Source: Ostreococcus lucimarinus (lineage: Eukaryota). From it: a DNA stretch of 64,000 nucleotides. The notes under the pieces were generated by a model. That model was not told the origin of the DNA. It was given only the letters and a program-made list of their open reading frames with translations, and ran no database searches. The stretch is taken from the NCBI GenBank assembly GCA_000092065.1, contig CP000595.1; one strand, given 5' to 3'. Below are positions 7,798 to 59,920 of this stretch, one piece after another. Both the position numbers and the translations under genes were made by a program. Numbering within the stretch: the stretch's first letter is position 1; each line of letters begins with the position of its first letter.

Positions 7798-9288
7798 ATG
7801 CCCGCCGCGCTCCCCGTGGTCTCCGTCCAAGGCGGCAACGGCGCCACGAGCGCCCTGCCCGAAGTCTTCCTCTCCCCGATTCGTCCGGACATCGTCAACG
7901 CCGTGCACACGGGGCTGAACAAGAACAACCGTCAGGTGCGGCGGAGCGCGACGCGACCGCGCGATGCGAACGAGGGCGACGCGTGGACGCGCGCGCGACG
8001 CGAACGAGGGCGCGGGAACGAGAGAGCGACGACTGACGAATGTGCGCGCGTCGTTTTTGCGATCGCGATAGGCGTATGCGGTGTACAACCGAGCTGGGTG
8101 CGTCGACGACGCGAACGCGCGATCCATCGCGACCTCGGCGGGCGTCTGAACCCTCACCAGAGAGGGTTTCGGAGGCGCGCGACGACGACGACGGCGCGGC
8201 GCGGTGCGAGCGAACTCGAACGAGAGACTGACGAAAGATCGATTTAAACGAACAGGCACCAAACTGCGGCTGAATCCTGGGGTACCGGTCGCGCCGTGTC
8301 TCGTATTCCGCGCGTTCCGGGCGGCGGTACGCACCGCGCCGGTCAAGGGGCGTTCGGGAACATGTGCCGCGGCGGTCGCATGTTCGCGCCGACCAAGGTG
8401 TGGCGCCGCTGGCACCGACGCGTGAACTTGAAGGAGAAGCGATATGCGGTGTGCTCTGCGCTCGCGGCGTCCGCCGTGCCGGCGCTTTTGCTCGCGCGCG
8501 GTCACCGCGTCGAGGGCGTTCCGGAGGTGCCGCTCGTCGTCGACGACAGCGCGAGCTCCATCAAGAAGACGGCCAAGGCGGTTGAATTGTTGAAGCAACT
8601 CGGTGCGTACGCGGACGTCGAAAAGGTCAAGGCGAGCCGTAACATTCGTTCCGGTAAGGGTAAGATGCGTAACCGTCGTTACGTCCAACGCCGAGGCCCG
8701 CTCGTGGTGTACTCTGAGGACAACGGCGTCACGCGCGCGTTCCGCAACATTCCGGGTGTGGAATTGTGCTCCGTCGACCGCCTCGGTTTGCTCACGCTCG
8801 CCCCGGGTGGACACGTCGGCCGATTCATCATCTGGACCAAGAGTGCCTTCGACAAGCTCGACTCCATCTTTGGCACTGCGTCCAAGAAGAGCGCGTCCAA
8901 GAAGGGCTGGAAGCCGCCGACGAACATCATGGCGCAAACCGACTTGGCGCGTCTCATCAACTCTGATGAAGTTCAAAGCGCCGTCAACGCGCCGAAGGTT
9001 GGTGCTACGCGCGCGCACGCGCCGCTCAAGCGCAACCCGCTCAAGAACAAGTCCGCCATGGAACGCCTCAACCCGTACGCCAAGGTCGCTCGCGAGATGC
9101 AAGCTCGCGCGCAGGAGGAGCGCTCCAAGGCTAAGGCGAAGAAGAGCGCCACTGCGCGCTCGGCGGTTGGCCAAAAGTTCTACGAATCCATGAAGGTGGA
9201 CTCCAACTACGAAGGCGAACTTTTCGAAGATTTCGACGACTGGCTCACCCGCGGCGCGCCCGTGGTGCAAGGCGGCGACGACGAATAA
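7798..9288 (+). CDS. RPL4: 60S ribosomal protein L4 (uL4), three exons: join(7798..7935,8072..8097,8256..9288)
   Basis: Near-identical to conserved uL4 blocks ([20 protein letters not shown] / [57 protein letters not shown]...). Exon 1 ends NNRQ|GTGCGG. A 26-nt microexon (8072..8097, AYAVYNRAG) restores the conserved PYAVSxxAG segment. The second intron runs GTGCGT..AACAG, with ACTGAC branch motifs in both introns. Confidence 0.85.
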
Positions 9289-23728: not shown

Positions 23729-24583
23729 ATGCTGTACCTCATCGGCCTCGGCTTGGGAAATGAACGCGACGTCACGCTGCGAGGGCTGGACGCGATCAAG
23801 CGCTGCTCGAAGGTGTACTTGGAGGCGTATACATCCGTCTTGGGCGTGGACGTGCGAGCGATGGAGGCGCTGTACGAGAAACCGGTGCGAACGTGCGATA
23901 GGGCGTTCGTCGAGCAGGGCGTCGACGCGGTGCTGGACGAAGCGTTGAGCGAAGACGTCGCGTTCTGCGTCGTCGGTGATGCGTTCGCGGCGACGACGCA
24001 CTCTGATTTAGTGCTGCGAGCGATCGAACGCGGAGTGGCGGTCAGACCGGTGTATAACGCGAGCATCATGAACGCGGTGGCGGGCACCGGGTTGTCGCTG
24101 TATAATTTCGGCAAGGCGGTTTCAATTTGTTTCTTCACGCAGACGTGGAGGCCAGACAGTTTTTACGATTTGATTCGAGACAATCGGAAGAGTGGGGCGC
24201 ATACACTGTGCTTGTTGGACATTCGAGTGAAGGAACCGACGGTGCGAGCGCTGTGTAAGGGGATCGAGGAGTACGAGCCGGCGAGATTCATGACGGCGGC
24301 GACGGCGGCAAAGCAAATGTTAGAGGTGGAGGAAAGTCGGGGAGAGGGCGTGTACGGTGAGGACACCATGTGTGTCGCCGTTGCGCGCATCGGTCAGGAT
24401 GATGAAAAGATTCGTGCGTGCACGCTCGGGGAGATGCGTCGCGTGGACATGGGCGCGCCGTTGCACTCGCTCGTGCTCGTCGGCGACGTCATGGAGATCG
24501 AGTCCGCCATGTTAGCCACGCACGCCGTCAAGCCCGAAGACTTTTACGACGGAGATGCACCGTGTCAAATGCTCGACGGGTAG
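23729..24583 (+). CDS. DPH5: Diphthine synthase (DPH5, diphthamide biosynthesis methyltransferase)
   Basis: MLYLIGLGLGNERD...YLEAYTS N-terminus and full-length tetrapyrrole-methylase-fold similarity typical of DPH5. Confidence 0.9.
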   Translation: MLYLIGLGLGNERDVTLRGLDAIKRCSKVYLEAYTSVLGVDVRAMEALYEKPVRTCDRAFVEQGVDAVLDEALSEDVAFCVVGDAFAATTHSDLVLRAIERGVAVRPVYNASIMNAVAGTGLSLYNFGKAVSICFFTQTWRPDSFYDLIRDNRKSGAHTLCLLDIRVKEPTVRALCKGIEEYEPARFMTAATAAKQMLEVEESRGEGVYGEDTMCVAVARIGQDDEKIRACTLGEMRRVDMGAPLHSLVLVGDVMEIESAMLATHAVKPEDFYDGDAPCQMLDG

Positions 24584-24801
24584 CGCACACTGACCGATTG
24601 TAGATTAGCCATTCTTTTGATATTCAACAATTCTCTCAACGACTCGCGACTAATCACATCTTATTCGCTGTCTCGCGTTTAACTAAACTCACGCCCACTG
24701 CTGCCCTCCTCGCGCGCGTCGTACACTCTCTCGCCTCATTACACTATAATTCACATCGTTCGTTCCCTTCCCTTACGTCTCTGCTCGTCCGTTCGACCCA
24801 A

Positions 24802-28335: not shown

Positions 28336-29075
28336 TCAACCGGGATAGGTCTCGGTGAGCGCGGATAACGTCTTCGGTAAGCCGACGAATTTCAACTCGC
28401 CCCACTGTCGCCACGCGAAGGCGCACGTTAAACAGTTGAGCACGATGGTCGCCGCGGCGAAAATCAGGGAAACCAAACTGTAATCTGCGTTTTTGCACAC
28501 GTAATAATCCGAACTCAATACCACGGACGCGCACTCGGTGATGGACATGACGACGAACGTCGCCATGGCCGCGGTGAACAGCGCGTAGGACGCGAACTCC
28601 GTCCCGGGCGGCGGCGCCTTGCGAATCACGTACATCGCGATCAAGATCACCGTGTACGCCCAGAATCCCGCGTACACACCGACGACGCCCTTAAATTGAT
28701 AAAACTTCGTGAATCCACACCCCGCTTCACCGCAGTCGTTCAGCGTGCTCAGCTCCGGCCCCGCCAGTCCCTCGGTTTGTTTCGCCATGAACGAAAACGT
28801 CGTCAACGCCATCAACTGTTCGTTCGTCGTCGTCGTCGCGTCCTAGGTCAGTCTCCGCGCGTGCGAGTTCACCGTCGCGTCGCGTCGCGTCGCGTCGCGT
28901 CGCGTCGCGTCCCACGCACGCTCTCCACGAGCAACGCTCGAAACTTTGGATTCTTCATCAGCCTGTGATTCATCAGCGACGTCCCCTCCACGCTCGCTCC
29001 CACGCGTTTCAGCAGCGGTTCCCGCGCTTCGTCCGACGCCCCGGGCGCGTCGTCCATCGTCTCATCGCTCGCCAT
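28336..29075 (-). CDS. Four-TM membrane protein (CASP-like/MARVEL-like topology), two exons: join(28336..28815,28920..29075)
   Basis: Exon 2 is the 159-aa 4-TM ORF. Exon 1 (MASDET...ALLVES) ends at GAG AGC|GTGCGT. The 104-nt intron carries a (GTCGC)n microsatellite, an ACTGAC branch motif 32 nt before the acceptor GAACAG|TTG, and is phase-0 in frame. Confidence 0.5.
28874..28911. repeat. (GTCGC)7.6 pentanucleotide microsatellite inside the intron of the 4-TM gene
   Basis: Read directly from the sequence. Confidence 0.9.
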
Positions 29076-29909
29076 CCCGCGATATCCCTCGTCGTCGTCG
29101 TGTCGTCGTCTGAAGCGACGGCTCAACACCTTCGAGGTGTTGAGCCGTCGATCCATCGATCGATCGATGCGCGATGCGATCGACGCTTTGAGTTTCGTTT
29201 CATATCGTCGATCGACTCCGCGAGGTTCGACGCGACGCGATTTCATCGTTCGACCGCTCGAACGTTTGCGGCGACGGCGCGGCGCGCGCCGCACACCTCC
29301 GCGCGCGGAGGCGTCACCGCGCGCGCGCGTCGTCGATCGCGCGCGAATCCGCGAACGCGTCGCGCGCGCTTCCCGACGCCGCCGATCGCGCGCGCGGCGC
29401 GGCGTCGCGTCGAATGCCCCCGTCGACGACGCTGCTCCGCGCGCGCGATCTCGAGCGCGCGCTCGCCGAGCCGTGGCCGAACGCGCGATGCGCCACGGCG
29501 CTCGACGACGCGATGATCGACGCGCTGAAAAATCGGTTCGCGATCATGACGCCGTTCGCGAGGCGCGGGGCGGTGTGCGCGGCGATGTTGGCGTCGAAAC
29601 GCGCGACGAGCGCGCGCGCGATCGCGACGTGGCGGGACGTCGCGGCGGGAGACGCGGATGAGTGGGTGCGAGCGATGGCGCGGGCGATGGATGAAAGCGG
29701 GGAAAGATTCGATTGCGACCGATTCGCGACGGATGTGCCGGTGGTGCGTGTGCGAGCGATGCGCGAGCGAGGGGAATGCGACGAGAATTCATTCGGGAAG
29801 GCACCGTGGTGTGAATGAACCCTAACGCGAAGGACGCGGGAAACGACGCGGGAAACGACGCGGGAAACGATTACTGACGAATGAACGCCGCGGTGTTTGG
29901 TAAACTTAG

Positions 29910-46961: not shown

Positions 46962-49844
46962 TTATACGGGCGTACCGCCCCGATCTCGATCTCGATCTCG
47001 ATCTCGATCTCGATCTCGATCCGCGGACTCGCGCGTGAAGCCGTCTCGACCGTTCTCGTTTGGGCAATACTTTGCCACGCCGTCGTCCGAGATGGGCACG
47101 ACAGATTGTTCGCCGGCGTCGTAACTGATCGACGGCGACCACACGAGCTGGATGGTTTCGCCGACGTTCTCGAAGGAGTGAATCCAACCGCACGGCATGA
47201 ATAAAATGTCGCCCGCCTCGACGACGGCGCCGAAGCCGCGCGAACGCGCGATTTTGGGTTGTTTGTCCAAGTCGACGTTGAAGGCGTTCCCCAGATAGAC
47301 GGGATTGTACAACTCTTCACCGCCGACGCGCGCGGAGAGCGGGTAGAGGTTTTCCTCATCGGCGCGATCCCAGACGACGGCGCGTTTCGAGCCTTGAACC
47401 ACTAAAACCATCACGTGAGCCGGTTTGGCGTGATGATGCGCGTGATACGCTCGAACGCCATCGCCACTGGCGAAGAGCATAAACTTTTTGAACTCCGTAG
47501 GTCGCTCGCGAAAGAGTATCTTGGAGATATACGACCAGTCTCCGCGCAATTTCGTTTCGACAGCTGCTTTGACGCGTTCGGCGAGTGCCGGACATTGTTC
47601 AATAATGTGCCACGAGTGTACGCTCGGTGGCCATAAATTATCCGCTGGGTGTAAAAAGTCCACGCCGCGTTTTCTGGCTATTTTGGATTCCCCCATCAAC
47701 TCACTATCGAAAAAATCTCTCAGTGTTTTAATCTTTCCTTTGCCTTCGAGAAAATCCAACGTTTCATTCAGCGTCAAACCTCGTGTCGTTTCGAGACGTT
47801 CGGAAAGATCTCGCAAAAGTTTTTGATGCGTCGTTTTCGTCATAGACTGGAACAATGGCACTATTTTCGACCCCAAGTCGGCGAATGCATCGCCGCATAA
47901 ATCTAAAATGAGCTCTCGCGTCACGACGCTTCGTAGCACAGTTGCAAGGTTAGCGTTTTCGATCACCACTGGTTGCCCTTCCTTGACGTATTTCCGCTCG
48001 AACGCGTCAATTGATAGTGTAGATGCGTCAACGCGCTCGATGTTGTTCCACTGAAAACTCGGATCGCTCGACGACAGCAGCAGCGGTATATCATCATGTT
48101 GCGGCGCCTCGACCGTCGGCGCGCGTTTGTTTCGTTGATGATCCTCAACTCTTTCGCCACGACCGAGGTTGGCTTGATCATCTTGAATTCGAACTAAAGA
48201 CTCTAGGAAAGACGTAACACTTTGGGCATCGTTCGGTCCGATGAAACTCTGTGCGATCGCATTCAACTCCTTATGATTTCGCACATACGGCCCAAAGTGT
48301 GACGTTTTCATCTCGCGTCTGGCTTTTAGTGACTCTTCCACGGGCCACGGACAATTTAATGGATCGCAACACGGCGCATTAATGTCATACTGACTTTCTG
48401 CTTGAAGCAAAGTAGTCTTAAGCGCACCCTCAAAGCCGTAACGATTCAATAAAGTCGCGCGATCTTTCAGAAAGGCGACATCTTCTTCGGCGATGCTGTA
48501 CTTTTCCATCAACTCCTCTATTGTTGCGTCAGTGACTTCCGCCAAAAACGCGCTAAACGTGGAAGGAAACGTGCGGTGAATGGCACCCCCCTCCACCCAA
48601 CATCTGTAATCTAAGATAGCTCCGATAGTCGGTGACCAGTTTCCGTTTTCAAGCTCCACGATGCACGCCGGTTTAGTTTCGTTGGCAGACTTTGCGTGGC
48701 ACCTTTCCATCCACGGCAAAGTTTTTTCTTTCTCATAGATCACATAACCTGCAACATAGTGCCAGTGATGGCGCGTCCCGGGAATGCTCACTGTGCTGGT
48801 TTCGTCCTCACGTTTCAACATGTCCTCGTTGTCTATCAGCATCAACGACCCTTTGGCTTCGTCGATGAAGATGTTGAATATATTTCTGTCGTGGTTACCA
48901 AGGAGGAAGTCCATCAGAGTCATCCCTATGACGTCCTCTCGCTTAAGTCGCGATACAACGAGAAAAAGTTCTTTCGTCATCATGTTCTGGCCTGGTCTGG
49001 CACCATTGATATCAGTTGGCGCGATTCCCTTTGCCCAGTCTGTGACGAGAACGTGAGTGTTTTGCTTTCCACCAAGAGAACGTGTGTCGCGTGGCGTGAA
49101 AAACTTCAAAGTCTTTGCCTCCGTAGGCGACACAAGTCGCCCGAACCCCATTGTTTCGATCAATCGATGGATGGCTGATATCCTTTCCGGGGATCGATCA
49201 CGCTGACTGTGGAAACCGCCACACGTTTCGTCAACCGGCGTCGCGTTTGCGTGTTGACGAAATTGTCCACGAATACCGCACCAAGCCTTGACGCTCACCT
49301 TTTTCCCTTCGCTCGTAACTCCTCGCAACACCATTGCCTCAGATTTGCCGACATACCTCCCTGGATTTCCCGCGTCGATGCGCTCAACTTTGACGTCGCA
49401 GTCGCAGCGCTCGCACCACCCACGCGAGTCGACGACGTCGTCTTCGCCCAGCTCGGAATGAGGCACGCATGTGGAGCAAGACGAACACGTCTCAAAGCTC
49501 GCGCGTGTACGCTTGTGATTTGTGTCTGCCCCGCGTTCATCGTCACTATCTTTCCGCACGTCGGCGTCGGCGTAATCAGCGTCAGCGACACCATCGGCGA
49601 GTTTCAGCGCTCTAACAGCAATCGTCTCGCGACGCGGCGACGTCCTCGTGAGTGCGACGGTGAGCACGCACACGAACGCGATAGAATAACACGGTGGTTT
49701 CCACCGCGCGGGCCTTCGACGCCTCTTCGTGGCGTGATGCCACATCGGAGGCGCGGAGTGACGTCGGGACGGCGACAAGCGAGAAGGCGTCGTAGAACGC
49801 ATGGGAACTAAAGCGACGCGTGCGTAACGAATGCGCTGCTTCAA
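46962..49844 (-). CDS. JmjC (cupin) domain protein with an N-terminal kinase-like domain and C-terminal (DR)6 tail
   Basis: C-terminal JmjC fold (HAHHHA..., ILFMPCGWIHSFENVG). The N-half contains a catalytic-loop-like LLGNHDRNIFNIF...LIDNE segment of uncertain family. The last codons are translated from a (GATCTC)n microsatellite. Confidence 0.65.
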   Translation of the reverse strand: MKQRIRYARVALVPMRSTTPSRLSPSRRHSAPPMWHHATKRRRRPARWKPPCYSIAFVCVLTVALTRTSPRRETIAVRALKLADGVADADYADADVRKDSDDERGADTNHKRTRASFETCSSCSTCVPHSELGEDDVVDSRGWCERCDCDVKVERIDAGNPGRYVGKSEAMVLRGVTSEGKKVSVKAWCGIRGQFRQHANATPVDETCGGFHSQRDRSPERISAIHRLIETMGFGRLVSPTEAKTLKFFTPRDTRSLGGKQNTHVLVTDWAKGIAPTDINGARPGQNMMTKELFLVVSRLKREDVIGMTLMDFLLGNHDRNIFNIFIDEAKGSLMLIDNEDMLKREDETSTVSIPGTRHHWHYVAGYVIYEKEKTLPWMERCHAKSANETKPACIVELENGNWSPTIGAILDYRCWVEGGAIHRTFPSTFSAFLAEVTDATIEELMEKYSIAEEDVAFLKDRATLLNRYGFEGALKTTLLQAESQYDINAPCCDPLNCPWPVEESLKARREMKTSHFGPYVRNHKELNAIAQSFIGPNDAQSVTSFLESLVRIQDDQANLGRGERVEDHQRNKRAPTVEAPQHDDIPLLLSSSDPSFQWNNIERVDASTLSIDAFERKYVKEGQPVVIENANLATVLRSVVTRELILDLCGDAFADLGSKIVPLFQSMTKTTHQKLLRDLSERLETTRGLTLNETLDFLEGKGKIKTLRDFFDSELMGESKIARKRGVDFLHPADNLWPPSVHSWHIIEQCPALAERVKAAVETKLRGDWSYISKILFRERPTEFKKFMLFASGDGVRAYHAHHHAKPAHVMVLVVQGSKRAVVWDRADEENLYPLSARVGGEELYNPVYLGNAFNVDLDKQPKIARSRGFGAVVEAGDILFMPCGWIHSFENVGETIQLVWSPSISYDAGEQSVVPISDDGVAKYCPNENGRDGFTRESADRDRDRDRDRDRDRGGTPV
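46982..47020. repeat. (GATCTC)6.5 hexanucleotide microsatellite, coding for the (DR)6 C-terminal tail of the JmjC protein
   Basis: Read directly from the sequence. It lies within the final 20 codons of ORF 46962..49844. Confidence 0.9.
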
Positions 49845-49879: not shown

Positions 49880-52800
49880 CTATTTTGGGGATTCCCGCGA
49901 GTTCGTGGAGTGCGCGGTGAGATGGCGCTCGTCCAAGGCGATTAAACGTTCGCCGCGTCGGTGTGTTCGAGCTTTCCAGCGCTCACGTAAATCTTGCAAC
50001 TGTGAGCTCAAAGCGCCGTGTTGCTGGCGAATAGTAATCGTAGAGTCAGCCTTGATCGTTTCAAGTAAATCGTCGTCGGCGAAAGGAAGACGTTGACCAG
50101 TCATGCTTCGAAGTTGGATGCGTTCGCTTTCCTTTGCCATTTTCTCTTGATGAATGATCTCTTCGTCTCTCTTGGCGTCGAATTCGTCGACAATCGCCTC
50201 TTCAAATTCCAAGTCGCGAATAGCGCGCTTGATGAGGCCTTCTTCGCCCTCTTCGCGGAACTGGCGAACCAACGTTCGGGCAAAATCATACCATGCCCAT
50301 GCGTGCAGGATGAACAACAAGGCCGTGATGAGATCGACAAAAGTCGAGCCTTGTCCACCTTGTTCGCCTGATTGTTTGAAAATCAGTCCGCCGGTGAATG
50401 TTGCCATAGTAGCAAGTAAGCCATGTGTCTCGATCTTTGCGTACTTTTCGCCGGCATACGGTTTTGCGACGATGTGGAATACAAAGAAAAGTTGCAACAT
50501 ACAATTCACCGTGTATCCACCAATGACTGCACTTCGTCTAGATACGATCACTATGAAGATCAGGATGAATTTTCTCGCGAATATGACCCATTCCCACCAC
50601 CACGCGGACTTGACATTGATTCCCTTGAAGAGCAAACCGAGACGATATTGCACCATTGCTGAATCGTGCTCGCCGACAATGTCTTCTCCGCGAGCGAGCT
50701 GCAGCAAACCGTATGGAATACCGACGATATACAGTATAGCCCAAACGATGACCATAAACAAGTAAAGTGAGTAGGCGGTGCCCCGGCATTGGACCGAATA
50801 GTCGGATACAAAGTGTCGATCGCTGTCGCCAGACGTACCAGTGCACTGCGTGAACTCAGCCAAATATTGAACAAGGGTGGGATAGAGAAGCCACAGAGTC
50901 GCGACGAGCCATGATATTACTATGTCGTAAGCTCTGATGTTTCGCACTTCTTCAAGACCGACATCGTGCTTGTTCACTTTATTCGTGTTACCACTATCGA
51001 TGGCGTTTGTTTCTTCATCTTCAGCAGAATCATTTGCCTTTGTCTTCTTCGTGGCTTCCACTCTAGCTTGGGCCGTTGCCTCTCTCAACTCTTCGACGTA
51101 CTTGATAACCGTGAAGATGATGAACAAGAATATCATCAAGCCTAGTGGGAGCAACTCGTGAAACAGTAGATTTCCGTAAAACTTCCAGCCAATGGCGCAC
51201 TTTGCTGACGCCGACCGTATGTCAGGTAACGAAAGCTTCTCGGCGATAAGTAAGAATGCTTTCATCGAATCCGGCCATGCGAGGTCTAAATTTTTCGCCA
51301 ACGCTGTCATTTGTAAATAGGTGACAAACGATTTTATCATGCCGACGACTTGTGAACTTCGGCGTTGATTGACAACCCGAATGAGCCACACCAGCAACAA
51401 TATCCAGAGAAAGTTGACGACGACGATCGGAAAGTTGAGCACTCGATATGCTCCTGCCGAACAATCGTAACATTTTGGTGGATATGCTTCTCGAATGGCG
51501 TGGTACGCATAACCATTCGCACAAGCTGCGCACATAGCACCAGTGTACCCTGCATCAAGACATGTGCTGTTTACGCCGCCTAGGCACGCGTCAGGGTACG
51601 GACACGCGCGAAATTTCAGCGTTTGTCGGTCAAATCTACTGAAACCAGGAAGCGCTTCGACATTTTCGAGCTCATCACCGTAACATTTTGCACCTTTCGG
51701 GCATGCCATACATTTGTAATCATCGAGTGGGAGTTGTCGATAATAGCTCTCGAATGGGACACTCGTTTGAGAGATGCAGTGGCAGGAACTCTTGCTCACG
51801 TGACCAAGGGCGCCTAAAAGTTGCACTCCTGACTGTGCTTGATATGTTTGCCTCAATCTGCCGTCAACTCGCGAAGTATCCATGGAGATTGGGCACGACG
51901 TGCATGCTCCGTCACCGTGCGCCACTTTGTAGAAGCCATTCTTGCACGGCACACACATGCCATACGGGTGAAGAGCATCGAGCCATCGAGATGACCCAGA
52001 TGTAGCTGTCTTATATAGAGTTATATTCGTTTCGACATAAATGGTATCGATATCTTCAGTATATCCCGTGCCTCCACTAATGTCGGCGGTGAAGCCAGGA
52101 ATGCACTCGCACACGCCAGAGCGAAGCACGCTGTTCGGTTTGACTGTTGAGCAATTCATGACCGTCGTTGGAGTTGAAGGTACGATACTCACATTCAACG
52201 TTGAAGCCGAAAAATTCAGCTCATAGGCATTCGCGCGCTCACCGATGATTGTGATTGAATCGAATTTCGCCAAGCCGTTCACCATCGCCGCCTCTGTCCC
52301 TGAAATGCTCGCCACAGCGGGCGATACACTGACCGTAAGCGTCGTATTGATATCGACGCACACGTTTCCTACAGAATCGATCGCCGCGATGACTGGTGCA
52401 GGCGAAAGTGCGAAGTCATTTTCGTTTATGAAGGGAGGTGCCGTGACGACGGCCAACGCTGTCGGCGCGCCAGGGACTACGGTGAACTCCAACATGTCAG
52501 TCTCCAGCACAGGATAGAGCGCACCAGGACATCGACTTGAGCCACATGATGAAGCGAATCGCAAGCGATAGGTCCCAGCTAATGCATTTTGAATATGCAG
52601 ACCGACATTATAGTGTGTGTCGGGCGCAATACCACTATACCCAGCCTCCCTGCAATATGATGGTGCGGGGTTGGTGTACACCACTCTGTACGTGTAAGCA
52701 CCAGTCGTGGGATTACTGGAGACCACAGTCCTCGGGCTAGAGTCAAGTGAATCTTTGCACCATCCCACTCCACCATTTACTGCGAGAAGAGATCCATCCC

Positions 52801-55800
52801 ATTCGGCTTGCAAGGTTGGTAGCACACTTGCCCGTGGTTGATCCTCCGCTGGCACGAAAGAAAATAGCTCAACCGTGATGTTACGCGCTTCGGTGTCCCA
52901 CATCGAGCCCACATGATAACCGCCAGGATCAGTCATTTGCACGACAAAGTCACGAAGATCCAGGGTTTGCGCTGCGATATATTGTGCAGGATCCCGACAC
53001 AAACCTCGGTCGACACGTGTGAACGAGTTACCGGTGCACGTGTCAAGCGCCGCTGGGTACCCAGCGCTGTAAGTCAGTTGTGTGGAGACCGAATCGAGAC
53101 CCGCTGTAGAAAACGTCAATGAGTACGTTCCGGTGCACGGTCGATAGAATACGATATCATCAAACACCGCTGTGCCCGCAACGATAGTCTGAGGTGTGTA
53201 TGATACATTCGTCTCAAAGTTGCAAGCGCTCACGACCACGCGCTCCGCCTTTACAGAAACTTCGTAATTTAGGTTGAGCGCATTCAAGCCTGCATCGACC
53301 ACACGAATCTGAATCATACTCAATTTTACTTTTTTTGCCGTGGAATACGCAGTCTGCAACGCGATTGCTGCACCGCTGGCAGGTGACGTGAAAGTCTGAA
53401 CAATTAATCCACCATTAATATTTTGCATGAAAAAGAAAAAATAAGTAAGCCTTACCGGTGAGATGAAAAGCGCACTTGCAGTGCCAATCGTAATCGTAAA
53501 TGTACGAGTCGCGGGCGCAACGCTGAGCCCTAACGCGGTACAATTGTCGCAGTTGAAAGAAATCACATAATCCCCGATCTGTAATTAATTGTGTGTGAGG
53601 ATGAAAGTTCTAATGAAATCTGTCATCAATGGGAGCGTACCTCTGGGGCATTGATCACTGTGTCACGAAGTAGTGTACTGTCGGTTCCCGCCGCTATGAC
53701 GCCATTTCTCCCGCTCGTCGCAAACGTATGCCTACATTTTGAATAAAATTAATTAATTCCGGTTATGAATTAATTAGAATCGAAACGTACCTTTGACCCA
53801 CGATACTGGCGATAATACTGTACTCGTGAGTGTTAAGCGACCCGAAACGATTACCTGCGTCATCTGCGATCGCAATTTCGAAAGGGCCGAGGGTTGTTGA
53901 TGCCGTCGCCGGGTATGATCCTTGTGGTGAATTTGCCACGACCAGTTTAGCTGGATCTCCTAACGCCACTGTTACCGCATAAGTCGCAACGGCCTTGCCG
54001 TTGAGATAAAATACGATATCGTGCTGCTGCGCAGTCGGCGCGAGCAGCACGAGGTTCTTAAACTCAACGACGCCGGGTGTGCCGCCCTGTGTATTTAAAT
54101 AAGTTAATTAATTGTTCTCCGTGAAATAAATAATTCATCGCGTTCGAGCATAGTTGACTCACCTGAGTTGCACACGTCGTAGTGCTACCACACGATATCG
54201 CAAAAGTTTCCCCTCCTATCAAGGGATTAATTCCCTGTGGATAAGCCGCCAATTCGGCGGTTTGGCAGACAACAAATATTTGTGCCCCGGTCGGCGAAGC
54301 CGAAATAAAATTCCCTCCGCCATCGTAAAGTCGCCCAACTAGAGGACTAGAAGCGTTCGCAATCGATGTTTCTAGCTTAGATTTGAATGTTCCACTACCT
54401 TGTGTTTCGTCGAGGATCAATTGTGCCGCATTTCCCAAAGTCACGGAAAAGTAGTACTGTGCACCCAGCAGACCCGGCGAGTGGATGTCGACGGCGTACG
54501 TACCGATGTACGGCTTGGCGATGTGTAGTCCATCAAAATAGCTTCCACCAGACTCAGTGTTGGCTTCAAAAGTCGCCACTGATGTACATGATACTCCATG
54601 CAGTGTCGACGATGTACTGGCAAGCCCAGCACATTCGCATGCGTTGCCTTCACCAGTTCTTCTGCACAAGGTGACATTTTGCGGCGATAAGTGCACACGT
54701 CTGCTAGGACATGTCTCGCAAGCTTTCGTTTCAAGATCATCGACGGGATTGAAAGCTCCGTCGAGAATAGTCACCACGACTGGGTACATTGCAACGTCCG
54801 ACGCGGCGCGATATTGATGACAAGTGCAGTTGACATTAGTTTGGCACGCTCCGTCGACTGTGGCGCAGTACGGCAGTAAGCCGAGGTGATTGGATCGCCC
54901 TGCCGTGATCTCTAAATCCACGCTTGCAGACCTCAAACTCGAATCGGACGACACGAAAGTCAAATTGTACGTTCCTTTCTGCGGCTTGACGAGATGCAAA
55001 CCTGAGAACGTCGCAGTCCCAGCGCTCGAAGTGGTTTCCACAAGAGAGCCGGTCCTCGGGTACAGTGAAGTATCTGTGTATACAGTAAGTACCGACGTTC
55101 TTGCGATTGTTGTCGCATTTGCACCGAGTATGAACGGATGAATTTCGACGTTTGTGTCATTCATCATCGCCGTCAACGTAACTCCGTTCGGCAAAGTCCC
55201 CGTCGGCGACTCATTTCCCGCCCCATCCACCGGTACGACGACGAAGTCATCCAGAGGCACAGAGTGCCCGGCTGAGTATGCTGTTGCCTCGGATAGTTGG
55301 ATGCTTTCAGTGAATGATGGTGAAAATTCTAAGACTTTGGGGCTGGTGACCTTGAATCCGCTCACGGCTCCAATCAAAACGCTCACCGTGAGAACTGTAC
55401 TTTGTAGCTTTCCCACGCGCAACTCGCCACTCACTTCAGCGCCAGTCTCAATGACATTAAGGGTGTGCGTACCGACTTTCGGTGAATTTGCAATCAAACC
55501 CGTGAAAGAAACTTGACCGTTGCCATTCGTGAACATCGCAGTCGTTCCAGAAAGTTTCAAAGTTTCGCAAGTCACTTGAATGGTACGATTTGGCGCTACT
55601 GCATCCGTGGTTGAGTGACGATCCGCGGTTCCCATTGAATTGCCGAGCATATCTTGAACGTATACCGTGAACGAACCCAATCCTACAGATTGATCAGCTG
55701 TTACCGATGATAATATCGATTGACTCGAAGCTAGTTCATATCCAGCATCTCCAGCTAGCACATTCACCACTTGGAGAACGGGTGTTAAATCGCCAGACGA

Positions 55801-58800
55801 GAATGTCAATCCGAACTCCCCGACGACAGGTCCGACTACTTTGAGATCAGAAAATCGCCATACACCGCTGTCGTCTCGTTTTACTTGCAAAGTACCATCC
55901 AAAGTGATACCAGCCGATGCATGTACGGTCACAGTACGCGGCGTAATTTCCGCCGCACCGACAAAGTTATTCCCCCCGTCGTATGCGCCAATGATAATTT
56001 CACCTACGGATTGCTTGGGTGCCTCGGCGTAAACTGTTCTCTTACTATACGTCCCATTTATACGAAGGTAAGACGGTTCGCCGATCTCCATTTGCATAAT
56101 TGAATGCGCGCGATATCGAACTCCATTCAACGTCGTCGTAAACTGAACAATGTACTTTGAAGCCTCGCCAAAGTCTCCTCGTGTGGCATCGCTATACGTG
56201 ATATCGTCCGTGGATCCTACAGCTCGTGAACCAGAAGGTGGCATAGCGACAAGTCTGAGATCTGAAAATGATACTCGACCATCATTAGTCGTCTTGTTCA
56301 GCGTTCCAGTGAGCTGGGCTCCGATACTTCTCTCTCTGTAGTCTTCGTTGCTGTTGAGTGTACCCGTCACGAGTGACGCTTGTACGGTGACGTCATCAAG
56401 AGATAGCGTCTGAAGCATACTTCCACCGATGTCAACGATGTCGACTGTCAAATGTCCGATCGATACGTTTCGGGCCGCGTCGAGCACGACGACATCTGTT
56501 GGAAATAACGTAGCACTTGATATCATAGAATTCTCCGTCGCCGCGCCGGGTGTCACCTTCAAACCACCGCTCGAACCTGGTGTTACGGATAAATAGGCGT
56601 GTGCAAGTACACCAAGGTCATCACTACATGCACCATCATCATTGGTACAATCGGTTGCGGTAAAAGTGATCACGTATTCCCCAGCGGTTGGTATCGAGGA
56701 TAGCTGTGGAGTGAATGTTGCGATGCCGTCCGAAGTCTGCACTGATGACGTTGCCTCGGTGATAGCGACCTCTGACGGCCCAGAAATACTCGCCGAAATT
56801 GTGTAACCTTTCGTACCTCCTTGACCACGGTCATAGTTGATTTCAGTTCCATCGATATCCACAAGTCCAACCTTGAACGTTCCAAGTGAGAAATCTGTCG
56901 CGGCAACTCGAGCTTGATGCGAATCCGGTCCACTCAAGAGCTTAACTCCAACTGGTGGTCCATGAAGCTTCAAAATCCCTCCACTAACGTAATCAATACC
57001 GTTCAGTGCAACTGCGACCTGCGCATCTTGCGGTTGTCCGTTCGTAAGCCATGGAAGCGGACTCCCAACTGGATTGGCGCACCTTCCATTGACTACATTG
57101 CACACAGGACACTTGATTTCTGACGAACTAACGAACACCGCACTGGTCACACTCGTCGTGTTATCGTTGAACTTACATTTTAAATCGGGCGAATTCAGAA
57201 ACGGACCTCCGAGTATGCGAAGCAGTACTGGCGCGAGATCGGCATCCTCGCCTGTGAGAAGAACCTTGGCGTCATCTGAACCAATCTTTGTACTAATTAT
57301 GACGGCTGGATCGTGATAACGTAGATATATCTGACCAGAGTTCCACAGCGAGTTGGTCCAAATGCTTGTTGGATCGCTCGAATCGGTTGGTAATCCATCG
57401 AACGATATTTGGACTTCGCTATAACCTATAGTGGAGGAGTTTGAATTTGACGCCGACGGTGCCATGCATGAGAGCTCTGTCGCCGAAACATAAGTTGCTG
57501 GCGACCAAGATGTCTTCGAAAACCCATTATTAGCGTCATAAGTGTGTCCAAACCTACATGAAATCGAATGACTCATTCCACTGGCAAGGGTAGGCGAATA
57601 AAAGCCAGATCCATGAATTTTTATCGGCGTTCCAGACGTGAGCGCGCTGATGTGAGTCGGCTCGATCCCCGAAACGATCACCGTGGAGTACTTTGTGTAC
57701 GTCGTACTCGCCGCAGAACTCACCGCGAACACGCTGCGCTCGCCCGGTACGGCGCTGATGCCACCGATGGTGTGGCTTTCTTCAAATGTCCCCACACGCT
57801 TGAAACAACCGCTTATACAAGCACTAGACGTGTCCGTACCCCCTATTTCGATCTTGACGATCCGACTCTTACCGCTTTCACGCGATCCCACGGCCCAGTA
57901 CATGAAATCTTTTTCTCCTGCCGTCGCTCCGGTTTGAACGGTAGCGCTCAGAGCATCACGCTCTCCGAGCGCTGCGTCAAGAGCAATCACGGCGAGTGGA
58001 CTATCGCCTTCAGCAAAATTCAAGTCAAACATGAAGATGCATGCCGCGCGATTTTTACACCCCGGACAGTCGCCGTCTCGACCTGAAGTGCCCACGTATC
58101 CATAGCCGTTGTGCTTTGTGATCGCAGTAAACGTCGAAAAGCGTCCTTGCTTTGAATCGAGCTGCCCTTCGCACGCCTCGAGCACCTTGACGTTTGTTGA
58201 GTCCAAATACATTTCAACCCCATCGCCGTCACGAGTCCCTGAGTTTGTATTCACCTTGAACAAAGTAGGATAAAAGGTTTTGCCATCGGAGTCATCCAAG
58301 AGGGCAGATCCAGCGAAGATGACATAGTTGACACCTGTTTGAGTATGCGCCACACTCGTCTCCAACCTCATGGCGTCCGGGGCAAGCGAACATGTGGGGC
58401 ATTTAGTGCTCAGTAAACCCGGAGCTAAGAAGTTTATTCCTTTATCGTTCAAACTGCCGTCGACGTGACCAATGACGCTTCGCGACAGACCGTCTTCGTG
58501 CGTGGCCTTGTACACTATCATGCCGTTGGCTGGGTCTGTGCCCATGGCATCCAAAATGTACTGCTCTTTTGAGAAAGTCGCACTCGCCTGACCATTTGTC
58601 AATGAACTGAGAACGCAGTTCGCCCACTGCGATGAATCTGATGAGCATGTAGTACCGACATACTTGAAAAGCGAAAATCTAAACTGATTTGCCGTGGTCT
58701 GATGCCACATGTTCACTGGCACGACGACGCCCGTCAGCGCTGTCGACAAATCGGCAGCCATTTTAGCGTACACTCCGTACCAACCGCGCGACTTCTGAGG

Positions 58801-59379
58801 ATCCACATGTCCATATGCTCTCGGATGCTTCGCTGCGCACCCGCTCGAGATCCCAATACCGCAAAAATTTGGCAAAGGTGTTATCGACAATGGCACCGCG
58901 CCCGTTGTCTCTCGTCTCGGTCCGTTCGTTTGTCCCCAACCTCTCGCCGTCACTGCGTTTGAGGTAAAAGTCTCCGGATACCTCGGATCGACTTCGATCA
59001 CTCGCGTTCCATTAGCATCTTGCGCGTAGACGTAAATTACGTTCTTTCGCGTGTCTACCATGACGTCTTCGACGTACTTTTCGTCGTACGCCGTCCCGGC
59101 GGTGTCGTACTCGTACCCCGCCGTCCCATCCAAGCGCGACTCTTTCACCACCGATGGCGTGGGAACATCGCACGCAAGTCCTGCCCATCCTGCCTCGCAC
59201 GCGCACACGCCGTCTAAGCCGCATCGCCCCTGTCCAGCGCTCGCCGAGCACCCGCGCTCGCAACGATTGAACGTCAAGCCTTGACATGAGTGCGCCAACG
59301 ACGCGATGACGACGACGAGCGCGACGGTGACGAGCGCTCTGAACCCTCGGCGCGAGCTTGTACGACCGTTACCACCCAT
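49880..59379 (-). CDS. Giant (about 3080 aa) surface-receptor-like protein: signal peptide, EGF-like module, multiple IPT/TIG and Ig-like beta-sandwich repeats, Cys-rich furin/ephrin-receptor-like modules, polytopic (7-8 TM) domain, cytoplasmic coiled-coil tail. Five exons: complement(join(49880..53395,53456..53578,53641..53731,53791..54086,54163..59379))
   Basis: ORFs 54064..59634, 53763..54050 and 49880..53566 join in frame through four short AT-rich GT..AG introns (54087..54162, 53732..53790, 53579..53640, 53396..53455) with consensus donors (CAG|GTGAGT, AAG|GTACGT, GAG|GTACGC, CCG|GTAAGG). TIG-like repeats (e.g. VIVSGIEPTHISALTSGTPIKIHGSGF...SCRFG), the N-terminal EGF module (CQGLTFNRCERGCSASAGQGRCGLDGVCACEAGWAGLACD) and the C-terminal TM cluster are read directly from translation. 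Start is taken at Met 59379 (signal peptide); the ORF opens at 59634. Confidence 0.65.
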
Positions 59380-59920
59380 CGTCGCGCGGCGAGCGGCGCT
59401 TGAAGTCGCGCGTTCCCGCACGCTCACCCCGCGTCCCGCGCGATGGCCGCGGCTTCCGACTTCACGAGACGATGCGACGCGCGCTCGAGCGCGTCGTCGG
59501 CGCGAGCGGCATGGACGACGAAGCGAATGAGCGCTGAGACGAAGTTTGTGTGTTATACACGCACCGCTCGGCGTCGACGCGGTGGAGTGACGCGGCGACG
59601 CGTTGACGCGAGACTCGACCACCAACGACTCCAAGCGACGAATGGAATCGTCGCGGCCGCCTCGGCGACGCGGTCGTTGGTTCGTTTGTGAGTTTATTTT
59701 CGTTTCAACGAGTTTTTACGCTTTGAAGAGTAATAATGGACTATTATTTTAGATATTGAAAAAGGAAAGTTGCAAACCCCAAGTCATGTCGCGAATCGCC
59801 CGTCTCGGCGCCCAAAGGCGCTTTGAGACGACGAGGTCGAAGACGCTAAACGTGCGATTTTGAGACGACCGCTCGATCGCGTGCGACGAATTTGAGTGAA
59901 ACTTTGAAATAATTTGAAAT

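Follow-up and report, generated by a model that had tools for sequence, protein, structure and literature searches.

A run of three open reading frames (ORFs) on the minus strand of a 64-kb window (the whole 64,000-nucleotide (nt) stretch analyzed here, from contig CP000595.1 of the Ostreococcus lucimarinus assembly GCA_000092065.1) raises the question of whether these frames are separate genes or the pieces of a single gene interrupted by very short introns and, if the latter, to what class such introns belong. The ORFs (54064..59634, 53763..54050 and 49880..53566) are separated by gaps of 13 and 196 nt. An initial annotation, made from the sequence alone, had proposed that the two giant ORFs and the intervening 95-amino-acid ORF belong to one gene of approximately 3,080 amino acids (aa), joined across four introns. 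Here, we find that this proposal is borne out by frame restoration, by conservation in five lineages, and by colinear homologues; the coordinates, donors, lengths, phases, and product size given at the time all match the minus-strand sequence and our scripted splicing.

First, we examined the effect of removing the four segments. Their excision turned the interval 59634..49880 into one frame of 3,165 codons with zero stops. Scripted splicing and translation then yielded one minus-strand coding sequence (CDS, 49880..59379) that runs from an ATG at 59379 to a stop at 49880 (stop codon 49882..49880) and specifies 3,080 aa in five exons: exon 1 (54163..59379, 5,217 nt), exon 2 (53791..54086, 296 nt, which is the coding portion of the '95-aa ORF'), exon 3 (53641..53731, 91 nt), exon 4 (53456..53578, 123 nt), and exon 5 (49880..53395, 3,516 nt including the stop codon). 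The segments between them, all on the minus strand, are intron 1 (54087..54162; 76 nt, GC 0.32, phase 0, CAG/GTGAGT...ACACAG/G), intron 2 (53732..53790; 59 nt, GC 0.24, phase 2, AAG/GTACGT...ATGTAG/G), intron 3 (53579..53640; 62 nt, GC 0.37, phase 0, GAG/GTACGC...TTACAG/A), and intron 4 (53396..53455; 60 nt, GC 0.27, phase 0, CCG/GTAAGG...GTTCAG/A). The acceptors of introns 1–4 are thus CAG, TAG, CAG, and CAG, and the GC content falls from about 0.50–0.57 in the flanking exons to 24–37% in the introns.

Next, we compared the locus with its relatives. The product of the exon-5 ORF occurs on many Tara and ENA contigs, which are themselves 99.8–99.9% identical to the window, and a metagenome scan that used the beginning of exon 5 as its query recovered the same species along with several relatives. 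Five lineages were compared: the window itself and four from metagenome contigs, namely L013 (99.2% nucleotide identity to the window), L015 (94% protein identity), and L019 and L023, which represent two sister lineages (L017–L022 and L023–L026) that are each ~61% identical to the window at the protein level and 87.6% identical to each other at the nucleotide level. All four segments lie at the same positions in all five lineages, and each begins with GT, ends with AG, and carries a GTRNG-like donor and a YAG acceptor in every lineage. In the order window, L013, L015, L019, and L023, intron 1 is 76, 76, 76, 75, and 74 nt long, intron 2 is 59, 60, 60, 57, and 57 nt, and intron 4 is 60, 60, 58, 61, and 60 nt; intron 3 is 62 nt throughout, with a diverged sequence. 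Exons 2 and 3 have 296 and 91 nt in all five lineages, and exon 4 has 123 nt in the window, L013, and L015 and 114 nt (three codons fewer) in L019 and L023. Intron lengths thus change by 1–3 nt, in non-multiples of three, and exon lengths are either fixed or altered by whole codons. The frame is kept only when the segments are removed, and the spliced orthologue ORFs are then stop-free for more than 3,080 codons. When exons 2–4 were compared with the introns, indels were confined to the latter, and substitutions in the exons favored third codon positions (15/16/32 and 6/6/20 at positions 1/2/3). Contig L013, at 99% identity, carries a 1-nt indel polymorphism in intron 2; no other intron variant was found among 12 O. 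lucimarinus contigs, in which variation is too low to be informative.

These comparisons bear on the most direct alternative, in which the three ORFs would be separate genes or a broken pseudogene and the AT-rich segments would be intergenic spacers or decay products. ORF callers do split the locus in this way on metagenome contigs, into products of 1,787, 95, and 1,228 aa. However, the 296-, 91-, and 123-nt pieces keep their length and frame down to about 61% protein identity, they show a third-codon-position bias, and the spliced ORF is free of stops in all lineages. The 91-nt exon, moreover, could supply neither a start nor a stop by itself, and both the repeat domains and the intron-less homologues described below run continuously through the junctions. 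We consider separate genes or a decayed locus to be exceedingly improbable.

To place the junctions in the context of the protein, the junction region was aligned with the rest of the product. It matches two paralogous repeat regions of exon 1 (E about 1e-9) over a span that covers junctions 2–4, with no gap at junctions 2 and 3 (for example, APE/IGDYVISF versus IPTAGEYVITF). A repeat hidden Markov model (HMM), built iteratively from the other repeats of the protein, spans junction 1 with E = 4.8e-10 and junction 3 with E = 0.039. The initial annotation had described these units as beta-sandwich repeats. The repeats are real by both the pairwise (E about 1e-9) and the HMM measure, but the fold label could not be confirmed: a single-sequence AlphaFold model of one paralogous repeat reached a predicted local distance difference test (pLDDT) score of 36 and showed strands only, and neither a PDB sequence search nor a low-threshold Pfam search returned a fold for the repeats.

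An exhaustive HMMER search with exon 5 returned about 2,000 homologues. Outside the five lineages, the closest of them are P0077, P0078, P0079, and P0083, all of them ORFs called on ENA/Logan contigs; a Micromonas pusilla CCMP1545 protein belongs to the cluster of P0078. BLAST matched each of the four to the junction region, and P0077 and P0078, when aligned through it, are uninterrupted and gapless at all four junctions. The spliced reading therefore fits the family, and these homologues do without the introns. From these alignments, the introns are probably specific to Ostreococcus; parsimony suggests that they were gained in the Ostreococcus lineage, with the orthology of the distant homologues being putative.

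Intron 4 deserves separate consideration, since it is 60 nt long and stop-free, just as the initial annotation had noted, and combines an open frame with an in-frame length only in the O. lucimarinus genome. It is conceivable that introns 1–3 are real and that 53455..53396 is instead coding in O. lucimarinus, as a 20-aa insertion VRLTYFFFFMQNINGGLIVQ, in which case peptides covering VRLTYFFFFMQNINGG are predicted. Besides its length and open frame, this reading draws on the elevated retention reported for short AT-rich introns in the mating-type regions of Mamiellales (PMC13298755); an isoform that retained intron 4 could be translated without truncation. Against it, the 94% relative has only 58 nt at this place and one sister lineage has 61 nt; the segment hence cannot be coding there and would shift the frame, and its in-frame length in O. 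lucimarinus is incidental. Its GC content of 0.27, GTAAG donor, CAG acceptor, and ATTAATT core (described below) are those of an intron like the other three, and neither the homologues nor the paralogous repeats have a 20-aa insertion at that point. A coding role for this segment is thus very unlikely. We noted that three public 'proteins' (P0031, P0035, and P0037) start inside intron 4 or translate it (MQNINGGL..., VRLTYFFFF...; region 53396–53566).

The suggestion that more in-frame introns may hide inside the long exons was not supported. A both-strand scan for short GT..AG segments far more AT-rich than their flanks found no further one in the coding sequence, and no gap larger than 12 aa occurs in the orthologue alignments, which gives no sign of extra hidden introns. 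The only other AT-rich patch in the coding sequence (51998–52065) had no splice signals that we could find and reads as ordinary coding sequence. A search of 53200–54400 against Rfam gave a sole match, to a long non-coding RNA at chance level (E = 1), so the segments are not known RNA genes.

Collectively, what we observed directly are the splice signals, the restoration of the frame, the conserved positions, the lack of coding constraint on the segments, the coding evolution of the mini-exons, the colinearity with homologues, and a conserved internal motif. On these grounds, the four segments are very probably genuine U2-type GT-AG spliceosomal introns of one gene, a reading in which we place high confidence. 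Two considerations weigh against it. Excision from the mature mRNA is a step that we infer from sequence features, and the exact 3,080-aa product had no match in a collection of 15 billion proteins that includes the O. lucimarinus RefSeq set, UniRef, and EukProt. The public gene model must therefore differ or be missing, and the corrected model given here is probably new. An exact look-up of the product from the ATG of exon 1 to its first in-frame stop likewise returned no match.

We then asked which class of introns these are. In standard Mamiellales chromosomes, introns are few and have an AG/GTGCGT(G) donor and an (N/G)ACTGAC branch point (PMC2483917, PMC3879977); in O. lucimarinus, 87% of the introns outside chromosome 2 that are confirmed by expressed sequence tags carry ACTGAC and a GTGCGTG donor (PMC2483917). 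By contrast, the introns of chromosome 2 prefer GTRNGT donors and have weak branch signals (PMC2483917). One half of the big outlier chromosome (in Ostreococcus, chromosome 2) has a low GC content; this half, termed BOC1, holds many short AT-rich introns. By definition, BOC1 introns are shorter than 75 nt, have a GC content below 43%, and lie inside the BOC1 region (PMC3879977), and those of the BOC1 type are described as 40–65 bp long (PMC3491373 and PMC2367439, citing Derelle 2006 and Palenik 2007). A 2026 study attributes the BOC1 style to erosion in a non-recombining mating-type region, through AT-biased mutation without GC-biased gene conversion together with a deletion bias (PMC13298755).

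The four introns resemble the BOC1 or chromosome-2 type in being short (59–76 nt), AT-rich, and GT-AG, in having GTRNG(T) rather than GTGCGTG donors, in lacking ACTGAC in O. lucimarinus, in occurring several to a gene, in the GC drop at their splice sites, and in their low-GC host DNA. Introns 2–4, at 59, 62, and 60 nt, fall below the 75-nt cut-off and intron 1, at 76 nt, is 1 nt over it (its sister-lineage counterparts have 74–75 nt), while GC contents of 0.24–0.37 here and 0.22–0.40 in the relatives are all below 43%. Three things set them apart. Their host DNA lies outside the BOC1 region, on what we take to be a standard chromosome (see below); there are just four of them, all within 767 nt of an otherwise intron-less 9.5-kb CDS; and all four carry a conserved AATTAATTA core, unlike BOC1 introns, which are described as having no discernible branch motif. 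Because of their location, we file them as U2-type GT-AG introns of BOC1 style and not as strict BOC1 introns.

With the canonical introns of Ostreococcus and Micromonas (mean length about 188 nt), the four share GT-AG ends, the same kind of chromosome, and presumably the same U2-type spliceosome; they differ in donor consensus, branch motif, length, and base composition. The contrast with GTGCGT/ACTGAC introns drawn in the initial annotation was thus correct and matches the dichotomy published for O. lucimarinus (PMC2483917). Its further idea of a distinct intron population needs adjusting: the class is the already described short AT-rich one of the chromosome-2/BOC1 type (PMC3879977, PMC3491373), here found outside that region. 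Assignment as canonical Ostreococcus introns was rejected, as both the GTGCGTG donor and an ACTGAC 20–35 nt from the AG are absent from all four in O. lucimarinus. Candidate canonical introns do occur elsewhere in the window, as pattern matches with 57–70% GC, at 8098–8255, 24414–24603, and 29744–29909 on the plus strand and at 28919–28816 and 45829–45726 on the minus strand. These GC-rich candidates are 104–190 nt long and have GTGCGT donors and (A/G)ACTGAC 15–35 nt upstream of a YAG.

Other known systems fit less well. U12-type introns have an RTATCCTT donor and a TCCTTAAC branch site, and the observed donors GTGAGT, GTACGT, GTACGC, and GTAAGG do not fit, hence this type was rejected. Like the introner elements of Micromonas (IE-A to IE-D; PMC3879977), the four introns appear lineage-specific, being present in the Ostreococcus-like lineages that were recovered and missing from Micromonas-like homologues, and they have a sequence element in common; introner elements, however, are multi-copy, longer, and GC-rich and avoid low-GC DNA, whereas the four share only a 7–10-nt core, of which neither the 64-kb window nor 26 related loci yielded another copy. 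Short AU-rich introns of plants and AT-rich protists have (C/T)TAATT in common with the core, and AU-richness plus intron definition is the proposed logic there as here. Unlike in those organisms, the introns in question are a tiny minority in a GC-rich, intron-poor genome with a rigid ACTGAC signal. This kind of intron is thus already known in Mamiellales; what is new is its occurrence outside the outlier region, together with a conserved 9-mer. The surprise is limited, given that short AT-rich introns are well known in the group and that about 13% of confirmed introns outside chromosome 2 lack ACTGAC.

Upon a closer inspection of the intron alignments, we noted that the longest invariant block in each intron across the five lineages is a core of the AATTAATTA type. 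On the minus strand, it lies at 54104..54113 in intron 1 (invariant AATTAATTAA), at 53749..53758 in intron 2 (again invariant AATTAATTAA, with a second copy, CTAATTAATT, at 53768..53775), at 53582..53590 in intron 3 (AATTAATTA, if an alignment offset is allowed for; it ends 3 nt before the acceptor CAG), and at 53402..53408 in intron 4 (invariant ATTAATT, with a second copy, ATTAAT, at 53414..53419). An AATTAAT(T) motif near the acceptor had been proposed in the initial annotation and is present, but the distance of 8–25 nt given there needs correction: the end of the core is 3–17 nt upstream of the acceptor YAG, varying by intron and lineage, and upstream copies are up to about 34 nt away.

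The motif is concentrated in this cluster. AATTAAT has 12 matches on both strands in the 64 kb, all within 53402–54232, against 2.55 expected, and a count of 12 was not seen in any of 100 shuffles. The palindromic hexamer ATTAAT occurs nine times in the window, seven of them within the 257 intron bases, and was not found in 785 nt of other window segments with GC ≤35%, which are mostly intergenic. The presence of the motif in all four introns has a p of about 2.5e-4 in composition-preserving shuffles. Among the 26 related loci, 23 contain AATTAATTA, always inside these introns; the flanking sequence of all 26, like the rest of the 64-kb window, gave no copy of this core. Apart from the core, the introns of the two main lineages are 46–62% identical, which is no better than the exons at the nucleotide level. 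Between L019 and L023, none of 39 intron differences falls in the 36 core positions, where about 5.5 would be expected.

How might such a core act? CTAATT is the commonest branch-like hexamer of rice and Plasmodium introns (Table 2 of PMC2483917), and the core contains (C/U)UAAUU. UUAAU within it fits yUnAy, at a distance of 6–23 nt from the 3' end, and AAUUAAU could pair with the GUAGUA box of U2 small nuclear RNA through A-U and G-U pairs, as an AT-shifted version of ACUAAC/ACUGAC. We propose that an ordinary U2-type spliceosome would remove the introns through intron definition, with the 59–76-nt length, the exon-to-intron fall in GC, the GTRNG donors, the YAG acceptors, and, as a further cue, the conserved AU-rich core (AAUUAAUUA, in the 3' third); the low GC of the gene, whatever its cause, would go with the chromosome-2-like intron style. 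The likeliest reading of the core is a branch site, with an AU-rich element bound by a splicing factor as the alternative. We put the chances that it has a splicing role of some kind at about even, and offer only tentatively the stricter proposal, which we regard as rather doubtful, that AAUUAAUUA is a dedicated cis signal (putative branch site or AU-rich intron-definition element) that would allow splicing of short AT-rich introns alongside standard ones that rely on strict GTGCGTG/ACTGAC signals.

Several observations count against reading the core simply as a branch site. In introns 3 and 4, a mere 6–10 nt would separate the putative branch A from the 3' end. Directly upstream of AATTAATTA, the sister lineages have a canonical ACTGAC in intron 4 (L019 5975–5980, and the corresponding intron of L023), and the O. 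lucimarinus intron 4 is without it; this arrangement could be a snapshot of turnover between two branch-signal types. In addition, the copy number of the AATT unit differs between lineages, as slippage would yield. Runs of the (AATT)n kind can come from replication slippage in AT-rich DNA.

In a different account, the introns are real and the AATTAATTA core is without splicing function. It could be a by-product of slippage, a relic of common origin (for example, from a single source that was introner-like or duplicated), or a site at which a protein binds the DNA, TAATTA being a core of the homeodomain type. In favor of this account are the variable (AATT)n-like runs, the canonical ACTGAC in the sister-lineage intron 4, and a resemblance, judged by eye at about 70%, between the last 27 nt of intron 1 and those of intron 2, which hints at shared ancestry. 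Yet no lineage of the five departs from the core in any of the four introns, while the remainder is 46–62% identical between the two main lineages, it has escaped all 39 recent intron substitutions where about 5.5 were expected to strike it, and it has no counterpart in equally AT-rich DNA elsewhere in the window. A dispersed mobile element is also disfavored, as neither the 64 kb nor the regions flanking the 26 loci yielded further copies. A core devoid of splicing function is, in our view, possible but on the unlikely side.

The location of the gene bears on how these introns are to be understood. Most of the window has a GC content of 58–74%, which falls to about 49–52% between 47 and 59 kb; the flanks of this 12-kb island have 54–70% GC. 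The giant gene itself has a GC content of about 0.50, and 0.51–0.53 at third codon positions (GC3), versus a GC3 of 0.60–0.77 in its neighbors. The sister lineage at 61% identity also has this gene-sized low-GC island (L019 1000–9000). We noted that, in GC content, the island stands below the small outlier chromosome 18, for which 53% has been reported.

Two neighboring proteins have exactly the sequences of XP_001421591 and XP_001421748 (O. lucimarinus CCE9901), whose record is 468,366 bp long, and the window holds a starch synthase III-type gene and other green-algal genes. Chromosomes 2 and 15 have 489 and 267 genes, respectively (PMC2367439), and the small outlier chromosome 18 is 149 kb (PMC3491373). 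Given a genome-wide average of one gene per about 1.75 kb, a length of 468 kb agrees with chromosome 15 and with neither outlier. That the host is a standard chromosome is thus an inference from record size and published gene counts.

O. lucimarinus has been described as a 'natural experiment' on two intron regimes that coexist in one nucleus (PMC2483917). In the present case, chromosome-2-style introns form a conserved cluster inside a gene-sized low-GC island, and the chromosome around it is probably a standard one, which would separate intron style from chromosome identity. If the core is a dedicated signal, sequence and base composition would specify the two regimes locally, and neither the territory of chromosome 2 nor a distinct pool of spliceosomes would set them. 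The island would then serve as a small-scale 'autosomal' model for the erosion of introns into the BOC1 style in DNA of low GC content and possibly low recombination. With its four introns and single conserved 9-mer, the cluster is also a small, defined target for work on splicing and branch points in a transformable relative.

The 9.5-kb gene is, by its predicted features, one for a secreted or membrane repeat protein. The product begins with MGGNGRTSS... and a signal-peptide-like segment, followed by an EGF-like Cys motif, many repeats of ~80–100 aa, and Cys-rich ephrin-receptor-like modules, and ends in a multi-pass membrane region and a charged tail. Pfam matches are limited to Ephrin_rec_like and DUF7630, both within exon 5. 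For annotation, the locus should be read as a single 3,080-aa gene, whereas ORF-style pipelines have deposited its fragments in public protein collections. Entries such as those that translate intron 4 come from prokaryote-style ORF finders run on a eukaryotic locus by metagenome pipelines, and neighboring algal genes bear bacterial-style names, for example 'curved DNA-binding protein CbpA' and 'SlyX'.

Downstream of the giant gene lies a 960-codon ORF (46962–49844, minus strand) that starts ~80 nt past its stop. This ORF contains a weak PI3_PI4_kinase fragment and a Cupin_8 (JmjC-like) domain, and its GC3 of 0.58 is somewhat low. A fusion of the giant gene with this ORF (46962..49844) was considered and rejected on account of the stop codon and AT-rich spacer between them, the start region of its own, and its Cupin_8 content.

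Lastly, we noted two features of variation around the gene. In an alignment of seven near-identical haplotypes (L004–L009), the ~12-kb island has 4 single-nucleotide polymorphisms, and the flanking 11 kb has dozens along with in-frame indels; this contrast is biased and only suggestive, because the contigs were chosen for an identical exon-5 product. In the AT-rich spacer ~400 nt upstream of the ATG, a block of ~20 nt (59784–59804) occurs as two haplotypes, GAGACGGGCGATTCGCGACATGA and GAAGACGCCGCCCGCGCGCGCCA. The two are unrelated in sequence; the block is not an inversion and looks like a small replacement polymorphism.

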